Made by a program: the position numbers and the translations under genes
Shown: piece after piece, positions 248 to 12,135 of the stretch
Position numbering within the stretch: position 1 is the first letter of the stretch
How the letters are laid out: each line of letters opens with the position of its first letter
NCBI GenBank assembly: GCA_964358115.1
Contig: CAYHNY010000002.1
Location: 1-30,860, forward strand
DNA from: an uncultured Planctomycetales bacterium
Lineage (GTDB): Bacteria; Omnitrophota; Gorgyraeia; Gygaellales; Profunditerraquicolaceae
Length of the DNA stretch: 30,860 bases
Reading direction: 5' to 3'
Notes under the pieces: generated by a model
The model's database searches: none
What the model saw: only the letters and a program-made list of their open reading frames with translations
Told to the model about the DNA's origin: nothing

Positions 248-284
248 GCGTAATATTCACGCTGAGTGTGTAAACAATTACTCA
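248..284. promoter_or_regulatory. Candidate upstream activator (enhancer) sites for the NtrC/PilR-like protein; two imperfect palindromes
   Basis: GCGTAA-TAT-TCACGC (248-262) and GTGTAA-ACAA-TTACTC (268-283, nested in TGAGT...ACTCA), about 140-180 bp upstream of the -24 element. Could alternatively be RNA hairpins at the operon end. Confidence 0.4.
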
Positions 285-1660
285 CTTAAATTATGCTCTT
301 TCATTTTGTTATAAAGGGTCTTACGGCTGATCCCCAACTCCTTGGCTGCCGAGCTACAATTGCCCTTATTTTTAGCTAAAGCCTGCTGGATCAGCTGCTT
401 TTCGATTTTGCCGGTAGCCCCCTTGACTGCTTCCGATAAAGAAATGTAGTTACCCATATCCGTCAAATCAATATCCTTAGGGGCCAGGGCTTCGGCTACC
501 AGCGGAGCTAAGCTTTCTTTTGAAAGTATATTTGCCGTCTCAAGCACGATAGCCCGTTTTAAGATATTTTCCAGCTCCCGGATATTTCCTGGCCAGGGAT
601 AGTTGACCAGCAATTCCAAGGCCTCAATAGAGATGCCTTCAATTGAACGATTCAGCTCCTGGTTAAACTTCTGGATAAAATATTCCAAAAGCAGCGGGAT
701 ATCTTCGCGGCGTTTACGCAATGGCGGCAGATATATAGAAATAACATTTATGCGGTAATATAAGTCTTCGCGGAACCTCTTTTCTCTCACCTCGGTAAGC
801 AAGTCCTTATTGGTAGCGGCGATAATGCGCACATTCACGGGCACAGTCTTTGTCCCTCCCAGCCGCTCAATCTTCTTCTCTTCCAAAACCCTCAAAAATT
901 TAGCCTGCAAAACCAGGCTCATATCCCCGATTTCATCCAGGAAGATCGACCCGCCGTTGGCCTGCTCAAACTTTCCGGGCTTGGCTTCTTTGGCGTCGGT
1001 AAAAGCCCCCTTCTCATAACCGAATAATTCACTCTCAAGCAGCGTCTCCGGGATCGCAGAACAGGTAATGGGGACAAATGGCCTATTCTTGTAAGGGCTG
1101 CAGGCGTGGACAGCTTCGGCTATCAGCTCCTTGCCCGTGCCGCTTTCTCCCAGAACCAGCACCGTAACATTGCTTTCGGCAACCTTTAAAATAAAGCGTC
1201 GGATCTGCCGTATAGCCGGGCCTTCGCCGATCAGCTCTTTAAAAGGAAAAGAGCTGAGAGAATCCAGGTTATCCGGCCCAACCTTATGCCTCTCTACCGC
1301 CTGCCGCACGGTTAAACGCAGATGGGATAAATCAAAAGGCTTGGTGAAATAGCTAAAAGCCAGTTCGCCTATTTTTTCTATATCTACGTTTTCCTTGCCG
1401 TAAGCAGTAAGGACAATAGGATAGATCTTCGGGTTGATGGCGTTAATCTTGATCAAAGTCTCGATGCCGTTTAGGTTAGGCATACGCACGTCCATAATCA
1501 CTCCGGCAAAATCTTCTTTACTAACCCTTTCAATTGCCTCTTTGCCGTCCTTAGCCGTAACCACATTGTATCCGTCTTTTTTTAAAGCTTCAGAAATGGC
1601 AAAACGCATTGCGGTATCGTCATCAACTACAAGTATAGAATTATTATTCTTTTCGCTCAT
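278..1660 (-). CDS. Sigma54-dependent response regulator, NtrC/AtoC family (PilR-like by context)
   Basis: Receiver (VVDDD, GVIMDVRMP, FTKPF); AAA+ domain with Walker A GESGTGKE, ESELFGYEKGAFTDA, Walker B IFLDEI, FREDLYYR, WPGNIREL; Fis-type HTH AAKELGISRKTLYNKM. Confidence 0.96.
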   Translation of the reverse strand: MSEKNNNSILVVDDDTAMRFAISEALKKDGYNVVTAKDGKEAIERVSKEDFAGVIMDVRMPNLNGIETLIKINAINPKIYPIVLTAYGKENVDIEKIGELAFSYFTKPFDLSHLRLTVRQAVERHKVGPDNLDSLSSFPFKELIGEGPAIRQIRRFILKVAESNVTVLVLGESGTGKELIAEAVHACSPYKNRPFVPITCSAIPETLLESELFGYEKGAFTDAKEAKPGKFEQANGGSIFLDEIGDMSLVLQAKFLRVLEEKKIERLGGTKTVPVNVRIIAATNKDLLTEVREKRFREDLYYRINVISIYLPPLRKRREDIPLLLEYFIQKFNQELNRSIEGISIEALELLVNYPWPGNIRELENILKRAIVLETANILSKESLAPLVAEALAPKDIDLTDMGNYISLSEAVKGATGKIEKQLIQQALAKNKGNCSSAAKELGISRKTLYNKMKEHNLSE

Positions 1661-1661
1661 C

Positions 1662-2693
1662 TTAAGACCTTTCAGGCAGAGTTATGATAAAACTGGTGCC
1701 TTTTGATTTCTCGCTTTTTACTTCCATTAAACCCTGATGCGATAAAATAACCTGCTGGGAAACGGTTAACCCCAACCCGGTATTGGCATCCTTGGTAGTA
1801 TAAAATGGCTCGAATATCTTGTCTATGTCCTTTTCGTCTATACCAGTTCCGGTATCGGAAAAAGTAATCCGGATATTGCCGTTTAAGTGCCCTGTGCTTA
1901 TTTTAAGCGTTCCTCCTTCCGGCATAGCATCATAGGCGTTGAGAATGATGTTTAAAAAAGACTGTTTTAATTTATCGGGATAGCCTGAGATTATCGACGG
2001 CAGGCCGTCCGTCTTTCTGATAATTTTTATCTTGGCCGCCCTGGGTTCAAACTTGGCTAAAGCCAGGATTTCATCAAGCAGGGCGTTAATATCCGTCTTC
2101 TCTTCTCTTAGCTCCTTCGGATTTCCGGAACAAAGACCTAAAAACCTGTTGATTGTTCCTTCTAGCCTTTCTATTTCACCAAGGATCACCCGGGTATATT
2201 CTTTTTTTGGCTCGCCGGGATTAAAATCTTCGTCGATTAGATTAACCAATCCCTTGATCGAACCCAACGGATTCCTTAGCTCGTGTGCTACTCCCGCCGC
2301 CATCAATCCCAAAGAGCTTAAACGCTGGAACAATTCCTTTTTTCTCTGCGCCAGCAAAGAAAATTTAGTCTTGTCCAAAGAAGAAAATAATTCCTCGATT
2401 TCCCGTTCGAAATAGGCAGGGCGTTTCTTAACTTCTGAATCGGCCTGCGTTAAGTTTTGACTAGCCGCAGCCAATTCTTGAAGCGGCACCATAAGCGCAT
2501 AGGCTAACGCCAAACCCACCACAAAAGATAACAGTGTAGAGAGAAAAAGGTATATTTTTAAGGCATTAAGGGTTTGCGCTAAATCCGCCAGATTTGGTAT
2601 GCTGTAAAGAAAAACCAATCCTGAACCGGCTACAACCAGGGTAATTAAAAGAGGGATAGCAAAGACAAGGCGGATGGCAATATATTTCTTCAT
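1662..2693 (-). CDS. Membrane sensor histidine kinase, NtrB-type (PilS-like by context); 2 TM with a very short loop, HAMP-like linker
   Basis: Two N-terminal hydrophobic helices; H-box VAHELRNPLG; N-box LNIILNAYDAM; DTGTGI; FEPFYTTK; GLGL. Confidence 0.93.
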   Translation of the reverse strand: MKKYIAIRLVFAIPLLITLVVAGSGLVFLYSIPNLADLAQTLNALKIYLFLSTLLSFVVGLALAYALMVPLQELAAASQNLTQADSEVKKRPAYFEREIEELFSSLDKTKFSLLAQRKKELFQRLSSLGLMAAGVAHELRNPLGSIKGLVNLIDEDFNPGEPKKEYTRVILGEIERLEGTINRFLGLCSGNPKELREEKTDINALLDEILALAKFEPRAAKIKIIRKTDGLPSIISGYPDKLKQSFLNIILNAYDAMPEGGTLKISTGHLNGNIRITFSDTGTGIDEKDIDKIFEPFYTTKDANTGLGLTVSQQVILSHQGLMEVKSEKSKGTSFIITLPERS

Positions 2694-2695
2694 TC

Positions 2696-5257
2696 TTATG
2701 ACTTATCTAGCGGCAGGATAAAGCTGAACTTACTGCCTTTTCCCCAGCTGCTTTCCGCCCAGATCCTGCCTTTATGACGGCTAATGATCTCTTTGGCCAG
2801 ATTCAGGCCTAAACCTAAACCGCTAAATTTTTCTTCCTTTGTGCTGGTTTCGGCAAAGCGGCCGAATATCTTATCCATGTCAACGGCAGGAATCCCTTTG
2901 CCGGTATCTTCTACGCTCACACAGACAAAATCCGTAGGCTTCTTATGCTCATCAAGGTATGGCGCTGCGCGCACCGTGATCAGGCCGTTGCGGGAGGTGG
3001 CTTTTAAGGCATTGCTCAAGAGGTTAGCCAAAACTAAATTGATCTTTTCTTTATCCGCGCTAACCTCTAAAATGCTTCTGGGCAAATCTTTTTTTAAAGA
3101 GAGTGACTTTTCTTTTGCCAAGAGCTCAAAATTCACTAAGCTGTTTTCAATAAGCGAAACCAGGTCAAACTTAAGCAGATTTAGCTGCAAACCTTGCTCG
3201 GCTTCCTTGATGCTGACCACCGCATCGATACTGCGCTGCAGCCTCTCTGAGCTCTCTTTAGCCTGAAGAAGCAGCCTCTTTTGTTCTTCGCTTAAGCCCC
3301 CTGCGGTTTCACCGAGCAGCAATATCAGGCTATCCTGCAAGGTGACTAAGGGATCCTTTAAGTGCGCGGATACCCGGCCGACAAAATCATTTTTCGTTTT
3401 CTCTAATTCTTTCTGCTTGGTTACATCCGAAAGCACGAAAAGCATGCCAATGGTCTTGCCGTTTTCGTCTTCAACCACGGTGGTAGAGGCCTTGATCGCA
3501 TCTTTGGTATTACTGTTAGGGCTGGACAACTCCACATTGGCAGCGCCTGCGCCGGAGCCTCTTCTGACTAAAGCTAACAGATGCTCATCTTTTAGCTGCT
3601 CTAAAATAGGCTTGCCCACCATATTTTCCTTAGAGATACCTAAGAGGTCTTCGGCTGCCCGGTTCATCAGCATAACTTTTTCTTCTTTATCCACTACTAC
3701 CACTCCGGATGAAAGCTCATGCAATAACTTATTAGCCCGCTCTAAGTCCTGGCCCATTTCCTTATTTTGCTCAAGCAATTCCTTAGTCGCATCGCGAACG
3801 CGGATATTAATGATTTCCTCGGCCTTCTGGGCGATATTGCGCAAATCCTTTAACTCTTTTTTAGAGATCACTACTTCATCCGGCTTAAGGTTTAATTTCT
3901 CTGTTTCCGCAGGCGGGGCCTCCTCTTTTTTACGCAATGCTTCCAGCTCTTCTTTGAGAACTACTGCTTCTTCGGGTTTAACCTCGACTTCTTTAACCGC
4001 GGCCTGCCGTGCTTGTTGCGTTTTTAACTTCTGCTCAAATTCCATGAGGCGCCGCAACTCTGCTATGGGAATCTCTATTTTTTTCTCAATAATAGGCATA
4101 TCTTTGATCTTTTCCAATGCCTGATCAAAATCTTTATCTTTAAGGATAGACTCTTGTTTCAGCCGCTGCGCAAGCGCAGGCATGATTTTATCCCTCTCTT
4201 CATTGGATTCGAAGGTCTTCTGGACAATTGCGGCCAGGGCATCCGCCGACTTTTTCTTGGCGTGGTTAAATTTATTAATAATCATATTGATTTTCAGCTT
4301 TTCCACATATTGCGAGACAATGGTGCCTAAGGCCTCGGAGGTCTTTAAGTTATCCGGGCTTCCTGCGCCTATAGCCAGCAGTTCTTCCTGAACCCGTTTT
4401 CCTATCTCTGCCATTAATACCGAAAGGTCTTTTCTTAAAGAGTCTCCTTCGCGTTCAAGCAGGTCTAATAGCCAACCGCCCAATTTTTGCATAACTGAAG
4501 ACAGGTTGTTAACCTGACGGCCGACATCGATAAGCTGAGTGGCAGTGCGCTTAGGGTTGCGCTCTAACTCTTGAAGTAACTTCTTCTCATCCAGTTCGGC
4601 GCTCAAATCTTCGATCTCGCCCAGCAAGAAACGCAGGAAAACCTTGTATAAGGTTTCCTTTCGCACTTTCATGGCCGCAAGGTAGTCGGCCCTGCTTGGA
4701 GCAATCCCTTCGCTTTCTTTAGTCCCGCCGGCTTTTAGCCCTTCTTCAGCCGAAACGATAACCTCATCATCGCCGATGCGGGCATAATGCACTTTTTCTA
4801 ACTTTATATGGGGTATTTTTTCAGGGATAAGCAGGATAGTGATTCCGCCCTTTGCTTCAATGGAATCTTCCTTCATGGAAAATACATTTAAAAAAGTATT
4901 CAACTCTTCAAAGGGGATGCCTTCAAAAAAGGTCAAGGCATCTATCTTTAATTTTTTAAAATTGGTAAAGAAGCGGGCTATCGAGGGATTAGCTAAATCC
5001 AAAACCTTGTCTTCAACCAGCAGCCTGTCTTCGACCATGCCGAAAGGTATCTGGTGCTTTCCGGATAAAATCTTAGTTAAGGCCGCATAAGCATTATCTG
5101 CAAACTGCTTAATCAGGGGATGGCCTGAGTGATAGAGCGAGTACTGAATTGTAGCCAGGTTGATGGCTTTGATAAATTCCTCAAAGCCGGTAAGTACCGG
5201 GGCCTGGAAAGCGCCCGAAGGCTGCACTTGAGGCTGTGGTTCAGGGGTATCGGCCAT
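2696..5257 (-). CDS. Large cytoplasmic atypical PAS histidine kinase-like protein (helical N-terminal region, coiled coil, PAS, degenerate HisKA, HATPase_c)
   Basis: PAS (SGVVVVDKEEKVMLMNRAAEDLLG...VLSDVT); DHp reads VSAHLKDPL instead of VSHELRTPL; HATPase NLLSNA, DTGKGI, GLGLGL, WGKGSKFSF. Confidence 0.85.
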   Translation of the reverse strand: MADTPEPQPQVQPSGAFQAPVLTGFEEFIKAINLATIQYSLYHSGHPLIKQFADNAYAALTKILSGKHQIPFGMVEDRLLVEDKVLDLANPSIARFFTNFKKLKIDALTFFEGIPFEELNTFLNVFSMKEDSIEAKGGITILLIPEKIPHIKLEKVHYARIGDDEVIVSAEEGLKAGGTKESEGIAPSRADYLAAMKVRKETLYKVFLRFLLGEIEDLSAELDEKKLLQELERNPKRTATQLIDVGRQVNNLSSVMQKLGGWLLDLLEREGDSLRKDLSVLMAEIGKRVQEELLAIGAGSPDNLKTSEALGTIVSQYVEKLKINMIINKFNHAKKKSADALAAIVQKTFESNEERDKIMPALAQRLKQESILKDKDFDQALEKIKDMPIIEKKIEIPIAELRRLMEFEQKLKTQQARQAAVKEVEVKPEEAVVLKEELEALRKKEEAPPAETEKLNLKPDEVVISKKELKDLRNIAQKAEEIINIRVRDATKELLEQNKEMGQDLERANKLLHELSSGVVVVDKEEKVMLMNRAAEDLLGISKENMVGKPILEQLKDEHLLALVRRGSGAGAANVELSSPNSNTKDAIKASTTVVEDENGKTIGMLFVLSDVTKQKELEKTKNDFVGRVSAHLKDPLVTLQDSLILLLGETAGGLSEEQKRLLLQAKESSERLQRSIDAVVSIKEAEQGLQLNLLKFDLVSLIENSLVNFELLAKEKSLSLKKDLPRSILEVSADKEKINLVLANLLSNALKATSRNGLITVRAAPYLDEHKKPTDFVCVSVEDTGKGIPAVDMDKIFGRFAETSTKEEKFSGLGLGLNLAKEIISRHKGRIWAESSWGKGSKFSFILPLDKS
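3839..4085 (-). repeat. Three degenerate internal peptide repeats in the large kinase
   Basis: KPDEVVISKKELKDLR, KPEEAVVLKEELEALR and the weaker KIEIPIAELRRL, each followed by a charged helical stretch. Confidence 0.55.
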
Positions 5258-5264
5258 TTTATAT

Positions 5265-6839
5265 TTAGCTTTCTTTGGTTAAAAAATTATGGTAAATTTC
5301 GGGTATATCCAGAACAAGGCAAATCCTTGCCTCAGGCAAAATTGCCGCGCCGCATAAATATTTCACCTTGCCCAGCAAATTGCCGAAGCTTCTCAATAAA
5401 AGCTGCCTTTCTTCTAAGATCTCATCGACAATCAATCCCATATATCTGCCCGCGCATTGCGCGATCATCACCGCTTCTTGAGATTTATTTTCTTGATGCG
5501 TAACCGGCAAATTTAAGAATTTTTCTAATTTTACTACGGGGACAAGGGAATTGTCAATCCTTAAAGTGAAAAACCCGTCTTTTCCCAGGATATCCGCCGG
5601 GTTAACCTTTAAGTTCTTATGCGCGAAGGGAATCGGAATGGCAAAAAACTGCCCGCCGGACTTAAGCAAAATGCCTGAGGTCATGCCGATCGTCAGCGGC
5701 AAGGAAAATATGAATCTAGTGAACTTATGCTCGCAAGATTCAATCTCAACAGTTCCCGATAATCTTTCGATATTGTCTCTGACCGCATCCAGGCCCACCC
5801 CTCTTCCTGAAAGCGTATCTACCGAAACCGAAGAGCTAAAACCGGGCAACAATATTAAGCGCAGGATTTGCGACGGAGTCATATGCAGGAGCTGCTCCTC
5901 TGTAACCAATTTCTTTTCTAAGGCTAATCTTTGGACCATCTCCGGGTCGATACCCCGTCCGTCATCTTCTATGGTGATAAATACCCGGTTGGCTTTTAAG
6001 CTCGCGCTGATCTTAATGCTCCCCTTTGCCGGCTTATTTAAATTTATGCGCTCCTGCGGCATCTCAATACCGTGCCTGACGGCATTATTGACGGTATGTA
6101 TAAGCGCAGCCTTGACTTCTTCGGCAATAAGCTTATCTATGCCTACGGAGCCTAGCCCCAACGATACCTCAGCTTCTTTTTTCTCTTTAACCGAGATATC
6201 CCGGATCATTCTGGGAAAATCCTCAAGTAAAACCGATAAAGGCGCCAGGCGCAGACGGTTCAAGTTCCCCTGCACCTGCTCCATCAGGCTGGCTAATCGG
6301 TCCTGATTCTCAGCTAATCCCTTTATTAAAGAGTTTAAACCGGCTTTCAATTCTTCGCTGATATCCTTGACCTTCAAGACGCCTTTTAGGGCCTCTAAAT
6401 TTTGATTAAACCGGCTAACTTCTTCGTTTATATACCAGCTAAGTATAGAAAGCTTATCCATTCTGGCAAGGGGAACTCTTAATAGCTCTTCCTGCTTATG
6501 TATAACCTTTTCCTCCTTACCTAAATCCTCAATTGATTTCTTTAAAGAGTCGAGCTTGTCGAATACGCTGTTGATCATCTGCGTAGCAGCCGCTTCTTGC
6601 GCCCCGGGTAAACCCGCCAAAATATCCTCCAGGCCATGCGCCATCCGGCTTATATCTTCCAAGCCTAACATCCGGGCTGAGCCCTTGATGGTATGCGCGG
6701 CGCGCTTTAGCTCGGAGATTATCTCGGGGTCAGCTTTATTTTTTTCAAATGCCAAAAGCTCCCGGGTGATATCGCGGATACGCCCGTAAGTCTCTTCTTT
6801 GAAAAGAGGCAGAAATTTACTTTTATCAAACTCTTCCAT
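5265..6839 (-). CDS. cheA: Chemotaxis histidine kinase CheA, compact (P1-P3-P4-P5; no P2, no receiver)
   Basis: HPt AHTIKGSARMLG; P4 HTVNNAVRHGIE, EDDGRGID, ILLPGFSS, SGRGVGLD; C-terminal CheW-like P5 (GLIVDEIL, CGAAILPEARICLVLD). Confidence 0.93.
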   Translation of the reverse strand: MEEFDKSKFLPLFKEETYGRIRDITRELLAFEKNKADPEIISELKRAAHTIKGSARMLGLEDISRMAHGLEDILAGLPGAQEAAATQMINSVFDKLDSLKKSIEDLGKEEKVIHKQEELLRVPLARMDKLSILSWYINEEVSRFNQNLEALKGVLKVKDISEELKAGLNSLIKGLAENQDRLASLMEQVQGNLNRLRLAPLSVLLEDFPRMIRDISVKEKKEAEVSLGLGSVGIDKLIAEEVKAALIHTVNNAVRHGIEMPQERINLNKPAKGSIKISASLKANRVFITIEDDGRGIDPEMVQRLALEKKLVTEEQLLHMTPSQILRLILLPGFSSSVSVDTLSGRGVGLDAVRDNIERLSGTVEIESCEHKFTRFIFSLPLTIGMTSGILLKSGGQFFAIPIPFAHKNLKVNPADILGKDGFFTLRIDNSLVPVVKLEKFLNLPVTHQENKSQEAVMIAQCAGRYMGLIVDEILEERQLLLRSFGNLLGKVKYLCGAAILPEARICLVLDIPEIYHNFLTKES

Positions 6840-6845
6840 TTGTCT

Positions 6846-8390
6846 TTAATCTAACTTAAACTCGCCTATAGCCTGTTTTAACTGATGGGAAAAAGCCTCT
6901 ATCTGCTGGCTTAAGCTTTCGATCCCCTTAGTTTGAGAGAGGGATTCCTGGCTTAACCCCTGTATATAAACGATAAGTTTTACTGCATCGGAAAAAAGCC
7001 TTTGCTGCTCTTCTATGGCAGAGTATATCTGCAAGGCCAAGGCATTAGTTTCTGCGGTAACGCGGTCGATCTTCTCGTTAGTGCCTTTTATCCTGGTAAT
7101 AAGCTCCAGGTCTTGTTTTATCTCGCTATTTCCGGCATCGGCAAAAGAAACCATGCCGCGGATATCTTCCTGTATCTGGCCGATCATCTTACGGATCTCG
7201 GTAGTGGCTTCCTGGGAACGCTCGGAAAGCCTGCGCACTTCTTTGGCTAAAGCCCCCAGCCCTTCAGGTGCTTCAAACTTATTTACTTCAATGTTAAAAT
7301 TTAAAGCCAGCATATCTATTTTCTTAGAAATTTCCTCTATCCAATCCAGGATCTTATTGATGGACCGGGATTTACCCTCCAGTACCTGGACCTGCTTAAT
7401 AAGCGAATCCATTTTTTCTTTTACCCGGTCTATGCCTGCGACGATTTGAGCCGCCACATCTTTGCCTTCATGAGTAAATTGCGCGCTCATCTTAAGGCTC
7501 CGGGTAGCCTCTTGAGAGCTCCTGGCTACTTCGCTGGCCGTATTCCTTAAATTTTCTATTACCGCACCTGCCTCGTTGATCTGGGAGGCCTGGCGCAGGT
7601 TGATCTCAGTCTGGGCTTGAGAAATCTCCTTCATCTTGTGGCTGCTTTCGACTAGCCTGCCGCCCACCTCCTTGACCCCGCGCATAAGCTCGGCTAAATT
7701 AATCAGCATCTGATTAAAGGCCCTGGCTAAATCGCCTATTTCATCGTGCTTCTCGATATTCAAACGCTGGGTAAGGTCGCCTTTTAATTCCGACAGCGCG
7801 GTAGTGACCCGGGTAATCTTTTGCAGAGGCTGCCTGATGCTATGATTAACGTAAGATATGGATAAGGCCACTCCTAAAACCAGGACAAAGGTCAAAATCA
7901 CTAAAGCGGCGATAGAAACCCGCTGGGACTTATAGGGCGAAATGGATTTTTGGCGGAACTCTACCTGCGCATCCTTGACTAATACATCTAATGCTAATAG
8001 CATATTGTCTATTTTATAAATATTTCTTGAGACATCAGGGTAATAAAGCTGGCTGACCATGGTTTTCAGGATATTTTCTTTATTTATTTTATCGGCTAAA
8101 CTAAAAGAGTGTTCGCGGATAAAATTCAGGGTTGTCTCAGCCTGCTGTTTCAAGACTTCCAGGTAGGCGGAAACGCTTGGGGCATCATTGGCAATGAATG
8201 CCGAACGCCCTTTTAGAAGGTTAGAGCGCATATCCTCAAGCTGGATAACCAGATTGGTCTGATTGATAATCTCATAAGAACTACGGCTGGCCTTATCAAT
8301 GCCCCAGATGCCGATTAAGCCCATGACTACAAAACCCGGATATAAAATAAGCAGCAACAGGGCTATCTTCTTAGCAATAGTCAATCGCAT
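6846..8390 (-). CDS. Methyl-accepting chemotaxis-like receptor (TM, ~125 aa sensor, TM, HAMP, signalling domain with divergent tip)
   Basis: Start revised to the ATG at 8390 (MRLTIAKK), 1 nt after the upstream stop. HAMP GDLTQRLNIEKHDEIGDLARAFNQM; tip MLALN...EVRRLSERSQEATTEI. Confidence 0.88.
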   Translation of the reverse strand: MRLTIAKKIALLLLILYPGFVVMGLIGIWGIDKASRSSYEIINQTNLVIQLEDMRSNLLKGRSAFIANDAPSVSAYLEVLKQQAETTLNFIREHSFSLADKINKENILKTMVSQLYYPDVSRNIYKIDNMLLALDVLVKDAQVEFRQKSISPYKSQRVSIAALVILTFVLVLGVALSISYVNHSIRQPLQKITRVTTALSELKGDLTQRLNIEKHDEIGDLARAFNQMLINLAELMRGVKEVGGRLVESSHKMKEISQAQTEINLRQASQINEAGAVIENLRNTASEVARSSQEATRSLKMSAQFTHEGKDVAAQIVAGIDRVKEKMDSLIKQVQVLEGKSRSINKILDWIEEISKKIDMLALNFNIEVNKFEAPEGLGALAKEVRRLSERSQEATTEIRKMIGQIQEDIRGMVSFADAGNSEIKQDLELITRIKGTNEKIDRVTAETNALALQIYSAIEEQQRLFSDAVKLIVYIQGLSQESLSQTKGIESLSQQIEAFSHQLKQAIGEFKLD

Positions 8391-8391
8391 A

Positions 8392-9207
8392 TTAAAGCTT
8401 CCTTTCTTGGAATAAACTGTAAGCCTGGTCCAGGGTAAGCCTGACCACATCATTCGGGTCAATATCGGTAAATTCCGCACCGGTATGGAATTCATTATCT
8501 TCCAATGAAAAAGCCCTTGACCAGACCACCCTGGCCTTAGCAAATACCGGGCGGCTGTCACAGGGTATAATTATTTTTAAATCTATGGTTTTATTTACTT
8601 CTAAGGGTTTATCCATAATCAGCCTTATCCCCGTAGCGCTAAAATCATATACCTTGACGTTCTGCCAGTTGCCCGGGCCAGACATATGCTGGACGGCTAT
8701 ATGGTCGGGGATACGCTGCGCCCTTCTTTTATCCTGATTAATATTTTTATCTGCCGATGCCGGAATAATTATTTCTTCTTCAACGGACTTACGCAGCAGG
8801 AGCCCCAAAATAAATAGGTTACACGATAAAGGCACCAGAAGTATCACTACCAGTATTACAAATAGCAAGGTCCCGGCCGCAATAATCAAGGTAAGCAGGA
8901 ACAAAAACAGGTTAAAAACAACCAGGTTAGTCAAAAGGCCCCTGATGCCGGAAATGTCTTTACGCGAAATAAAAAAAACTCCAAAGGTAAAAGAAGTAAG
9001 AAGCGAGAAAACTGCCAGCAAAGAAATGGAGGCCCCGGGCAGATGGGTAATCCTAAATTTTAAAAAGTAAGCGGTAAGGTAGAAAAGGATGAGAAAAAAG
9101 AAAATCAACAATAACGCGTTGATAAAAGCGCCGGCCTTCTTATTTTTTATACTTTTCAAGTATTCCGCCTTTGGGGGTTCCACGGACTTTAGCTCAGGGG
9201 GCTTCAT
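8392..9207 (-). CDS. Membrane protein (~4 TM) with C-terminal PilZ domain
   Basis: Start probably at 9207 (ATGA overlap with the cheW stop); the track start is 9225. Four hydrophobic segments, then PilZ motifs RRAQR and DFSATG, ending GAEFTDI. Confidence 0.85.
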   Translation of the reverse strand: MKPPELKSVEPPKAEYLKSIKNKKAGAFINALLLIFFFLILFYLTAYFLKFRITHLPGASISLLAVFSLLTSFTFGVFFISRKDISGIRGLLTNLVVFNLFLFLLTLIIAAGTLLFVILVVILLVPLSCNLFILGLLLRKSVEEEIIIPASADKNINQDKRRAQRIPDHIAVQHMSGPGNWQNVKVYDFSATGIRLIMDKPLEVNKTIDLKIIIPCDSRPVFAKARVVWSRAFSLEDNEFHTGAEFTDIDPNDVVRLTLDQAYSLFQERKL

Positions 9208-9554
9208 CTTTGAAAATCTTCCCATTTTATCATTCGCAGGCTGCCGGGCAGCTGGTCTTGCCCGATAAATTCTATCTCGCCTTCCACCGATAAGGCTAAT
9301 TTCTCATCCAGCTTTTGCAGGATAATAATGCTTTTGCCGATTGTTTGTTTTTGGCCCTGGGGGTTAAAAAATTTACTTGCTGAGACGACCGGCAAAATAT
9401 CCGTTTCAAAGCTGATCACCCCCGATATGTAATCTTTTGCGAAGGGTAAATAAGTAACGGCGCAATCGCCGCCGATGATCTGATAGATATCCTCGGCCTT
9501 TATGCCATAAAGGGCATCGCCCACAGAGAAACCGACGATTTCTTTATTCAACAC
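9204..9554 (-). CDS. cheW: CheW-like adaptor, short and divergent
   Basis: GTG start; FSVGDALYGI..EDIYQII and LPFAKDYISGVI...ILPVV match the CheW pattern; located in the MCP/CheA cluster. Confidence 0.8.
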   Translation of the reverse strand: MLNKEIVGFSVGDALYGIKAEDIYQIIGGDCAVTYLPFAKDYISGVISFETDILPVVSASKFFNPQGQKQTIGKSIIILQKLDEKLALSVEGEIEFIGQDQLPGSLRMIKWEDFQR

Positions 9555-9918
9555 TGCCCTTTCCTCCGGAAACCACCTTTTCCAATGCGTCCAAATTAAA
9601 AGGCTTGGTCATGTAAAAAGAGGCTCCGAGGTTAAGCGCCTCTTTTACGATAAATTCGTCTTTTATCGCCGTAAGCATGATAACCTTTACATCCTTATTG
9701 ATTTCTTTGGCTATCCTTAAAACCTCTATGCCGTTTAACCCCGGCATGAAAATATCTAAAATCAGGACATCGGGCTTTTCTTTGTTCAGTAAGTCCAGCG
9801 CTGCGCCGGCTTCGCAACAAGTAAAAACAACGTAGCCTTTATCCCGGAAATACTTTCTTAAGCTGTTACAGATATCCGGCTCATCATCCACCACTAAAAT
9901 CTTCTTTTGCACCAACAT
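9544..9918 (-). CDS. Single-domain response regulator (CheY-like)
   Basis: VVDDE, VLILDIFMP, MLTA, MTKPF: all canonical receiver residues present. Confidence 0.93.
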   Translation of the reverse strand: MLVQKKILVVDDEPDICNSLRKYFRDKGYVVFTCCEAGAALDLLNKEKPDVLILDIFMPGLNGIEVLRIAKEINKDVKVIMLTAIKDEFIVKEALNLGASFYMTKPFNLDALEKVVSGGKGSVE

Positions 9919-11577: not shown

Positions 11578-12135
11578 CTACTCCTTTTTAGGAAAATACC
11601 TCTTCATAAAATCTTCTAATGATTCCTGCTGGTTTTCAATAACATAGGCGCCGTCTTTCATCTGGGGCAAGTCTGCGACATCCGGATATTTGTTTTGCAC
11701 TTCGTTGAGCGTATCCTTTTGCTTTTGCACCATCTGCAACAGCACTTTGTTGTCCATAATCAGGCTATAGTAGGCCAAGGACTGCCGGATGGCAATCCTC
11801 AACTCTTCGTCGCTCCAGGGCTTGGAGATAAACCTGTACACGCCGCCTTCGTTAATCGCCTGAATTGCCACCTGCACATCGGCATAGCCGGTAAGAAGGA
11901 TGCGCACGGTGTCGGGATAAAGCTCTTTGACTTCTTTCAATAGGTCGAGCCCATTCATCTGCGGCATCCTCTGGTCGCTGATGATCAGAGATACTACGGT
12001 ATGCTCCATTATACCCTTTACCTCACGGGGATTATTCAAGGTGAGAATCGTATAGTTTTCGTTTCTCAGCAGGCGCTTAAAAGAACTCAGGATATTCTCT
12101 TCATCATCCACAAACAAAATAGTATGCTGGCGCAT
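11578..12135 (-). CDS. Response regulator with ~60 aa C-terminal coiled-coil extension
   Basis: FVDDE, IISDQRMP, LLTGY, ISKPW; tail DNKVLLQMVQKQKDTLNEVQNKYP...DGAYVIE. Confidence 0.9.
   Translation of the reverse strand: MRQHTILFVDDEENILSSFKRLLRNENYTILTLNNPREVKGIMEHTVVSLIISDQRMPQMNGLDLLKEVKELYPDTVRILLTGYADVQVAIQAINEGGVYRFISKPWSDEELRIAIRQSLAYYSLIMDNKVLLQMVQKQKDTLNEVQNKYPDVADLPQMKDGAYVIENQQESLEDFMKRYFPKKE

Follow-up and report, generated by a model that had tools for sequence, protein, structure and literature searches.

A divergent hairpin tip in the only chemoreceptor found in an Omnitrophota genome

Introduction

The hairpin tip is a textbook invariant of chemoreceptors, setting the formation of trimers, the docking of CheW and CheA and the building of arrays. 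A receptor gene from an uncultured bacterium of the phylum Omnitrophota departs from this invariance in both the core and the length of its tip. The gene lies on contig CAYHNY010000002.1 of GenBank assembly GCA_964358115.1, in a stretch of 30,860 nucleotides (positions 1 to 30,860 of the forward strand, hereafter the window), where it sits among genes for a CheW, a CheA and parts of a type IV pilus system. Here we describe the receptor and its tip, the small and fast-evolving clade to which it belongs, and the divergence of its presumed partners, before weighing what may have released so conserved a structure from its usual constraints.

The receptor and its tip

The receptor has the full anatomy of a transmembrane chemoreceptor, with the following features, all on the minus strand.

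6846..8390 (-): receptor gene, 514 amino acids, with a first transmembrane helix, helical sensor, second transmembrane helix, HAMP domain and signalling hairpin of 40-heptad type (Pfam and AlphaFold2)
7692..7847 (-): HAMP domain, residues 182-233 (Pfam PF00672, 51.6 bits)
7299..7382 (-): N-helix next to the tip, residues 337-364, more conserved than any other block within the clade, holding the equivalents of Tsr Q374, I377, L380 and N381
7227..7310 (-): 28-residue tip peptide, residues 361-388 (exact match)
7263..7277 (-): U-turn proper, F372-E376, the one part of the hairpin that is not helical in the AlphaFold2 model

The enclosing open frame spans 6846-8561 (-), and the true start is the ATG at 8390, which has AGGAAG 8 nt upstream and from whose methionine the N-termini of the orthologues P0122 and P0123 align. 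The signalling domain, MCPsignal (PF00015), scores 60.6 bits in the Pfam scan against a cut-off of 34.6, and 64.6 bits, likewise above the cut-off, in a scan of the genome; the sensor gives a faint Pfam match to a four-helix bundle. An AlphaFold2 model built on a 90-row alignment (mean predicted local distance difference test score, pLDDT, 85.7) places the sensor between two membrane helices, followed by HAMP and a hairpin of two unbroken helices (217-371 and 377-509) joined by a turn at 372-376. A precomputed database annotation also lists the Pfam family PF28544.1 on the receptor protein (P0002).

From the end of HAMP at 233 to E373 there are 140 residues, and from E373 to the C-terminus 141; the distance from the tip glutamate to the C-terminus is exactly 140 in 95 canonical homologues, the clear mode. 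The best NCBIfam model, Pseudomonas aeruginosa CtpM, aligns almost without gaps (receptor 140-512 against 186-557), as does the best sequence in the Protein Data Bank (PDB) found by HMMER, Pseudomonas putida PcaY (6S18; 30-282 against 295-549). We take CtpM and PcaY to be receptors of the 40-heptad (40H) class. The Escherichia coli Tar model, aligned at 187-515 to receptor 156-513, has about 29 fewer residues, that is, the receptor exceeds the 36-heptad (36H) form by about four heptads. Because the arm lengths match the canonical mode and the alignment to CtpM and PcaY is nearly gapless, the receptor is assigned to the 40-heptad type (20+20 heptads) with both arms intact.

A preliminary description of the locus, made from the DNA alone, had reported a rewritten tip at 7231-7315. 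The peptide is indeed encoded letter for letter, albeit about four bases away, at 7227-7310 (-); read in frame 1 on either strand, the interval 7231-7315 yields unrelated letters or stops. That the tip differs from the near-universal consensus and is short by one residue was borne out by BLAST, HMMER, and counts of spacers and columns alike. A single one-residue gap falls in the R-A-G part of the canonical tip, both in BLAST against 30 other Omnitrophota receptors and in HMMER against PDB sequences. The spacer between the N..IE and EVR motifs is 16 residues long in 229 of the 232 homologues collected in two protein searches; the three exceptions are the window protein and P0122, at 15 residues, and P0124, at 17. 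A comparison with 82 canonical homologues gives roughly 31 columns of at least 88% conservation between residues 354 and 389; about 17 of these are altered in the window receptor, which thus has neither the AARAGE.GRGF core nor the fixed length of the near-invariant tip consensus.

The changes are not scattered evenly. A 2026 review (PMC13098124, Table 1) lists the receptor residues that come within 4 A of CheW or CheA-P5 in each of two E. coli array models, and seven Tsr residues (Q374, I377, L380, N381, V384, R388 and R404) are common to the two. Alignment places them here at K357, M360, L363, N364, I367, K371 and R386: three are identical, I367 is the consensus of its class, two are conservative replacements and one is a real change, with Tsr E385 also retained (E368). 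Replacement of R388 by lysine is the sole substitution at that position to leave adaptation in Tsr near normal (PMC6681711). In Tsr numbering, the tip itself carries A382F, A383N, A386V, A387N and A389F, the loss of one residue at 389/390, and then G393P, R394E, F396L, A397G and V398A. Change is therefore concentrated in the U-turn, the adjacent Ala/Gly layer and the first turns of the C-helix, with the docking face of the N-helix mostly retained. To call the whole tip 'rewritten' was accordingly an overstatement, for six of the seven Tsr docking residues are identical or conservatively replaced, although core and length do differ. Three bulky residues stand in place of alanine at i, i+4 and i+7 near the turn and face smaller residues on the C-helix, an exchange that may reflect a repacked tip core.

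Errors of sequence or assembly were considered and discarded. A compensating pair of frameshifts or an assembly artefact is ruled out, as four residues within the divergent stretch (I, E, E and G) keep their alignment with canonical tips; an assembly error is further ruled out by P0270, a protein from a second assembly with an identical tip and two substitutions elsewhere, and by the odd tip being common to orthologues. Mis-binning of the contig was also considered, but its GC content and tetranucleotide profile are typical of the bin. The literature searched yielded no account of such a tip.

A small and fast-evolving clade

The receptor belongs to a clade of five distinct proteins, three of them with genome context, in metagenome-assembled genomes (MAGs) that are all incomplete (61.6-89%). 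An exhaustive HMMER search of 1.84 billion representatives recovered P0122, a full-length relative of 514 amino acids that is 42% identical to the window receptor, together with the fragments P0128 (55%) and P0195 (45%) and the distant P0123, P0124 and P0131, which have the same N-terminal sensor (P0123 and P0124 at about 26-29% identity). Genome searches located P0124 in genome G568 and traced P0128 and P0195 to a source protein in genome G587, P0271, which is about 54% identical to the window receptor and cut at the start of its contig. As NCBI names the source of P0124 Candidatus Omnitrophota bacterium, and G568 falls in the window's class, the phylum of the clade is settled as Omnitrophota. 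Word-index protein searches, with the whole protein or the sensor alone, gave no orthologue and nothing above 29-30% identity; genome searches recovered the clade in none of the 233 remaining genomes of the window's order (1 of 234 including its own), in three of 401 sampled genomes of the class and in none of about 400 sampled from the phylum, and a metagenome scan returned one match, an unrelated receptor.

Listed from the Lys or Arg that stands at R388, the tip motifs differ among members in both letters and length (turn length given relative to canonical).

Canonical: RAGEAGRGF, turn 0
Window receptor: KFEAPEGL, turn -1
P0122: KIGADEGV, turn -1
G587 (P0271): KSEEVSEGF, turn 0
P0124 (G568): RDSETRQGDI, turn +1
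P0123 and P0131: near canonical, turn 0

The oddness is thus kept in the close orthologues P0122 and G587, which disposes of the concern, raised at the outset, that it might be local decay of one gene. In a maximum-likelihood tree of cytoplasmic domains the five members form one clade (Shimodaira-Hasegawa-like approximate likelihood ratio test, SH-aLRT, 99) inside the well-supported canonical Omnitrophota receptors of the type found in genomes G039 and G040, and both the clade and its placement withstand the removal of 40 tip residues. Measured from the shared node, paths to the odd-tip members run to 1.9-2.3 substitutions per site, versus 0.45-1.4 for their canonical sisters: the clade evolves about three-fold faster, and the acceleration extends beyond the tip across the whole cytoplasmic domain. 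With the observed turn lengths mapped on the topology ((window, G587), P0122), at least three indel events are needed within five proteins, against none among 229 canonical homologues.

Rapid change has nevertheless spared particular parts of the protein. Between the window receptor and P0122, block 337-364 is 79% identical and the best conserved part, as against 42% in the turn (365-383) and 42% overall, and the two proteins, 514 amino acids each, align with a single indel pair. Judged by this block and the near-gapless alignment, constraint on the receptor persists. The orthologues for which DNA is available are only 27-55% identical in protein, and synonymous sites are saturated. Further down the hairpin, two facing arm segments, residues 286-310 (~7461-7535 (-)) and 431-460 (~7011-7100 (-)), are nearly unconserved between the window receptor and P0122, at 0-13% identity in 15-residue windows versus 30-50% in the remaining arms.

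The partner proteins

Divergence of the tip is matched in the proteins with which it would be expected to dock. MCPsignal scores are 60.6, 78.6 and 75.9 bits in the odd-tip modules versus 134-140 in canonical ones; CheW scores are 44.5 and 26.9 versus 106-123; and scores for the P5 domain of CheA are 55, 47 and 31 versus 69-87 (Pfam scan). Along its full length the window CheA is about 30% identical to the CheA~REC (CheA with receiver) of the canonical sister modules. The window CheW aligns to residues 11-107 of the 165-residue solved CheW 2QDL, such that the C-terminal third of the fold is apparently absent, and it has no NCBIfam match. At the position of the CheW motif NLRG the window protein has SFET and that of G568 has YANG. 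The arginine of this motif (R62 in E. coli) cross-links to receptor V398 and is implicated in receptor binding (PMC13098124); in the window module both positions, that of R62 and that of V398, are altered. The divergence of CheW and CheA-P5 alongside the receptor is in keeping with a non-standard core complex, and fits a joint drift of tip, CheW and P5 as a three-protein interface.

The module and its surroundings

The receptor gene stands among other signalling genes.

9544..9918 (-): CheY-like response regulator of a single domain, first in the module (PF00072, 103 bits)
9204..9554 (-): short CheW, 116 amino acids (Pfam 44.5 bits, profile 2-87 of 138)
8392..9225 (-): PilZ-domain membrane protein, encoded between cheW and the receptor gene (PF07238, 46.1 bits)
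5265..6839 (-): CheA, 524 amino acids, with Hpt, ATPase and P5, without a receiver and without a Pfam match for the dimerisation domain (Pfam)
5292..5675 (-): CheA P5 (CheW-like), the presumed docking partner of the tip (PF01584, 55-58 bits)
2696..5257 (-): PAS histidine kinase immediately downstream of cheA, with conserved synteny in all three genomes (synteny and identity)
278..2693 (-): histidine kinase and sigma-54 activator, a PilS/PilR-like pair, downstream (Pfam)
11578-12135: 185-amino-acid regulator, 44% identical to one regulator of G568

The stop of cheW falls inside the beginning of the gene for the membrane PilZ protein. Other genes of the window encode PilZ proteins (three in the window), sensor kinases, a PilB with an MshEN domain and PilC. 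In G587 the receptor is followed by CheA, the PAS kinase, a kinase, the sigma-54 activator and then a prepilin gene, whereas in G568 the order is regulator, regulator, CheW, receptor, CheA, regulator and PAS kinase, with no PilZ gene in the PilZ slot; the PAS kinase of G568 occupies the same position as that of the window and is 33% identical to it over 864 amino acids. All module genes are open in the three genomes, which come from three different families. No profile match to CheB or CheR was found in the window's genome (61.6% complete) or within the modules of G587 or G568.

The canonical modules of the nearest relatives (G039:C105 and G040:C22) are richer, comprising CheY, CheW, a binding protein, receptor, CheA~receiver, CheB, CheW and a CheR with tetratricopeptide repeats (CheR-TPR). 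Because these modules retain CheB, CheR, a second CheW and the CheA receiver, the odd-tip module looks like a reduced derivative of their type. Between cheW and the receptor gene, in the slot of the window's membrane PilZ, both canonical modules (L131 in G040:C22 and L132 in G039:C105) have a gene for a periplasmic solute-binding protein.

In its affinity the pilus and che locus departs from the core genome. The PilB of the window is 68% identical to that of G587, from another family of the class, versus 52-57% to those of the window's own family; RpoC and UvrA, on other contigs, are closest to their own family (81-83% and 74-76%, versus 75% and 68% for G587). The affinity of PilB suggests either that the whole pilus and che locus was transferred from one Omnitrophota lineage to another or that a paralogous pilus system has been retained patchily. 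The small genomes G013, G019, G021, G568 and G587 (1.8-2.4 Mb) have 6-12 matches each to PilB-like ATPases (8 in G587 and 12 in G568), an unusually large number of pilus or secretion motors.

One chemosensory system found per genome

In profile scans the window's genome (G000, 61.6% complete) and G568 (89% complete) each gave a single receptor, a single P5 and a single CheW, and G587 (78% complete), where the CheW region is unassembled, a single receptor and a single P5. No second MCP (methyl-accepting chemotaxis protein), CheW or CheA-P5 was found by these scans in G000, G587 or G568, incomplete as these MAGs are. The earlier proposal that the tip might insulate its receptor from other che systems therefore loses its footing, as no such system was found in any of the three carrier genomes.

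What may explain the odd tip

On balance, and with confidence only modestly above even, we favour a relaxed, co-drifting constraint in a dedicated one-receptor complex, probably one that regulates type IV pili. An intact transmembrane receptor of 40-heptad type would be the single input of a reduced module (regulator, CheW, in some cases a PilZ protein, receptor, CheA and PAS kinase) that would have lost CheB, CheR, the second CheW and the receiver of CheA. Because one receptor serves one CheW and one CheA, with no methylation machinery, the pressure to keep a universal tip would shrink to pairwise co-evolution. The face of the N-helix that docks CheW and P5 would stay conserved under selection, while the U-turn, the Ala/Gly packing layer and the first C-helix turns would drift in sequence and length, and CheW and P5 would drift along with them. 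Ligand sensing would most likely still be coupled to CheA autophosphorylation and to CheY-like regulators acting on type IV pili, within a small dedicated complex instead of a mixed, highly cooperative hexagonal array. The surroundings point to the pilus as the output: the window encodes PilB/MshEN and PilC, three PilZ proteins and a PilS/PilR-like pair, the counterpart of which in G587 is succeeded by a prepilin gene. Given the short CheW and the changed turn, an altered array geometry, in a different or smaller assembly, is plausible.

Several points weigh against this account. With MAGs only 61.6-89% complete, a second chemosensory system could be unassembled. G039 and G040 also have a single receptor, and yet its tip is canonical, which implies that the drift tracks the loss of CheB, CheR, the second CheW and the CheA receiver, not receptor number alone. 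The clade is tiny, at five distinct proteins of which three have context, and CheW is available for only two members, which cannot prove joint drift. The window CheW, lacking about a third of its fold, may be non-functional. The docking of the odd tip to its own CheW and P5 is presumed from sequence; and the low confidence of the structural model at the turn (pLDDT below 50 at 373-375, its lowest, versus about 85 in the hairpin arms) is weak evidence, the alignment being shallow for the odd-tip clade.

Some of the same observations could be read as the signature of decay, in which the module is a dying remnant, receptor, CheW and CheA are on a neutral course to becoming pseudogenes, and the odd tip is no more than damage. 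Branches about three-fold longer over the whole cytoplasmic domain, a shortened CheW without its conserved arginine, the failure to find CheB and CheR, the patchy occurrence (one of 234 genomes in the window's order, three of 401 sampled in the class) and the low model confidence at the turn would all be expected of such a remnant. We nonetheless consider decay unlikely: every module gene is open in three genomes of three families, arm lengths and register are retained to the residue, a 79%-identical block lies beside the tip in proteins 42% identical overall, synteny is kept and so are the docking residues. Selection for insulation, under which tip, CheW and P5 became orthogonal in order to avoid cross-talk with a co-resident chemosensory system, would account for their joint divergence, the very pattern expected of an orthogonal interface; but as the scans of G000, G587 and G568 gave no further MCP, CheW or P5, as the main docking residues are unchanged, and as the turn length varies among close orthologues in a manner resembling drift rather than one fixed new specificity, we regard it as very improbable.

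It is similarly hard to credit that the tip was remodelled to bind a different product of the locus, for which the membrane PilZ protein and the PAS kinase would be candidates. The PilZ gene is wedged between cheW and the receptor gene, the PAS kinase is syntenic in three genomes, and bulky residues take the place of alanine at i, i+4 and i+7 near the turn; against this, the G568 module has no PilZ gene, the bulky residues are not common to P0122, and CheA and CheW are always kept beside the receptor. Relaxed constraint in a dedicated complex could also be taken a good deal further. The clade might represent a minimal, non-adapting one-receptor core outside the trimer-of-dimers and hexagonal architecture, in which the length of the tip is free: a new architectural class, tied to type IV pilus and cyclic di-GMP (c-di-GMP) control in ultra-small bacteria. 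We hold this stronger form to be doubtful.

Relation to known systems

In overall build the receptor resembles the canonical 40H receptors CtpM and PcaY, with a sensor, HAMP, arms of about 140 residues and a hairpin that terminates immediately beyond the bundle in an F-K/R-L type ending. It differs from them in the missing turn residue and the roughly 17 altered columns of its tip, and from canonical receptors generally in a signalling-domain score of under half theirs (60.6 versus 134-140 bits) and in a genome where CheR and CheB were not found. The receptors of G039:C105 and G040:C22, its nearest canonical relatives on the tree, share the same core order of regulator, CheW, inserted gene, receptor and CheA; they differ in their short branches and canonical tip, and their modules also in a full-length CheW (106-123 bits). 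An ACF/Wsp-like system was considered for the window and set aside, the window module being without the CheA~receiver, CheB and TPR-CheR that are present in G039 and G040.

PilJ, the receptor of the Pil-Chp system (Tfp class), offers another likeness, being linked to type IV pilus control and demonstrating that a pathway-specific variant of the tip, of which its own is the best known, can exist. Among 14 PilJ-type hits, however, only three tip positions are changed, with the AGE.GRGF core and normal length kept. Membership of the PilJ/Tfp class was rejected for the window receptor, which has neither the N-terminal sensor domain of PilJ (PF13675, recorded in the source entries of the PilJ hits) nor the PilJ-specific tip substitutions and whose CheA is not ChpA-like. 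No MCP class described in the literature searched was found to have a tip like that of the window receptor.

There is also precedent for arrays that leave the hexagonal rule when their coupling proteins are modified, in the P2 linear arrays of Treponema denticola (PMC7666581). There the geometry is attributed to changed coupling proteins and membrane curvature.

Significance

The odd-tip clade separates two constraints, distinguishing the part of the tip needed for coupling to the kinase from the part that is seemingly kept only for a shared array and adaptation system. Its turn tolerates repeated one-residue indels and bulky substitutions in the core while the docking face of the N-helix remains fixed. 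Such sequences are natural material for testing these split constraints, in E. coli or in vitro, and the clade as a whole points to a reduced chemosensory design in Omnitrophota with small genomes.

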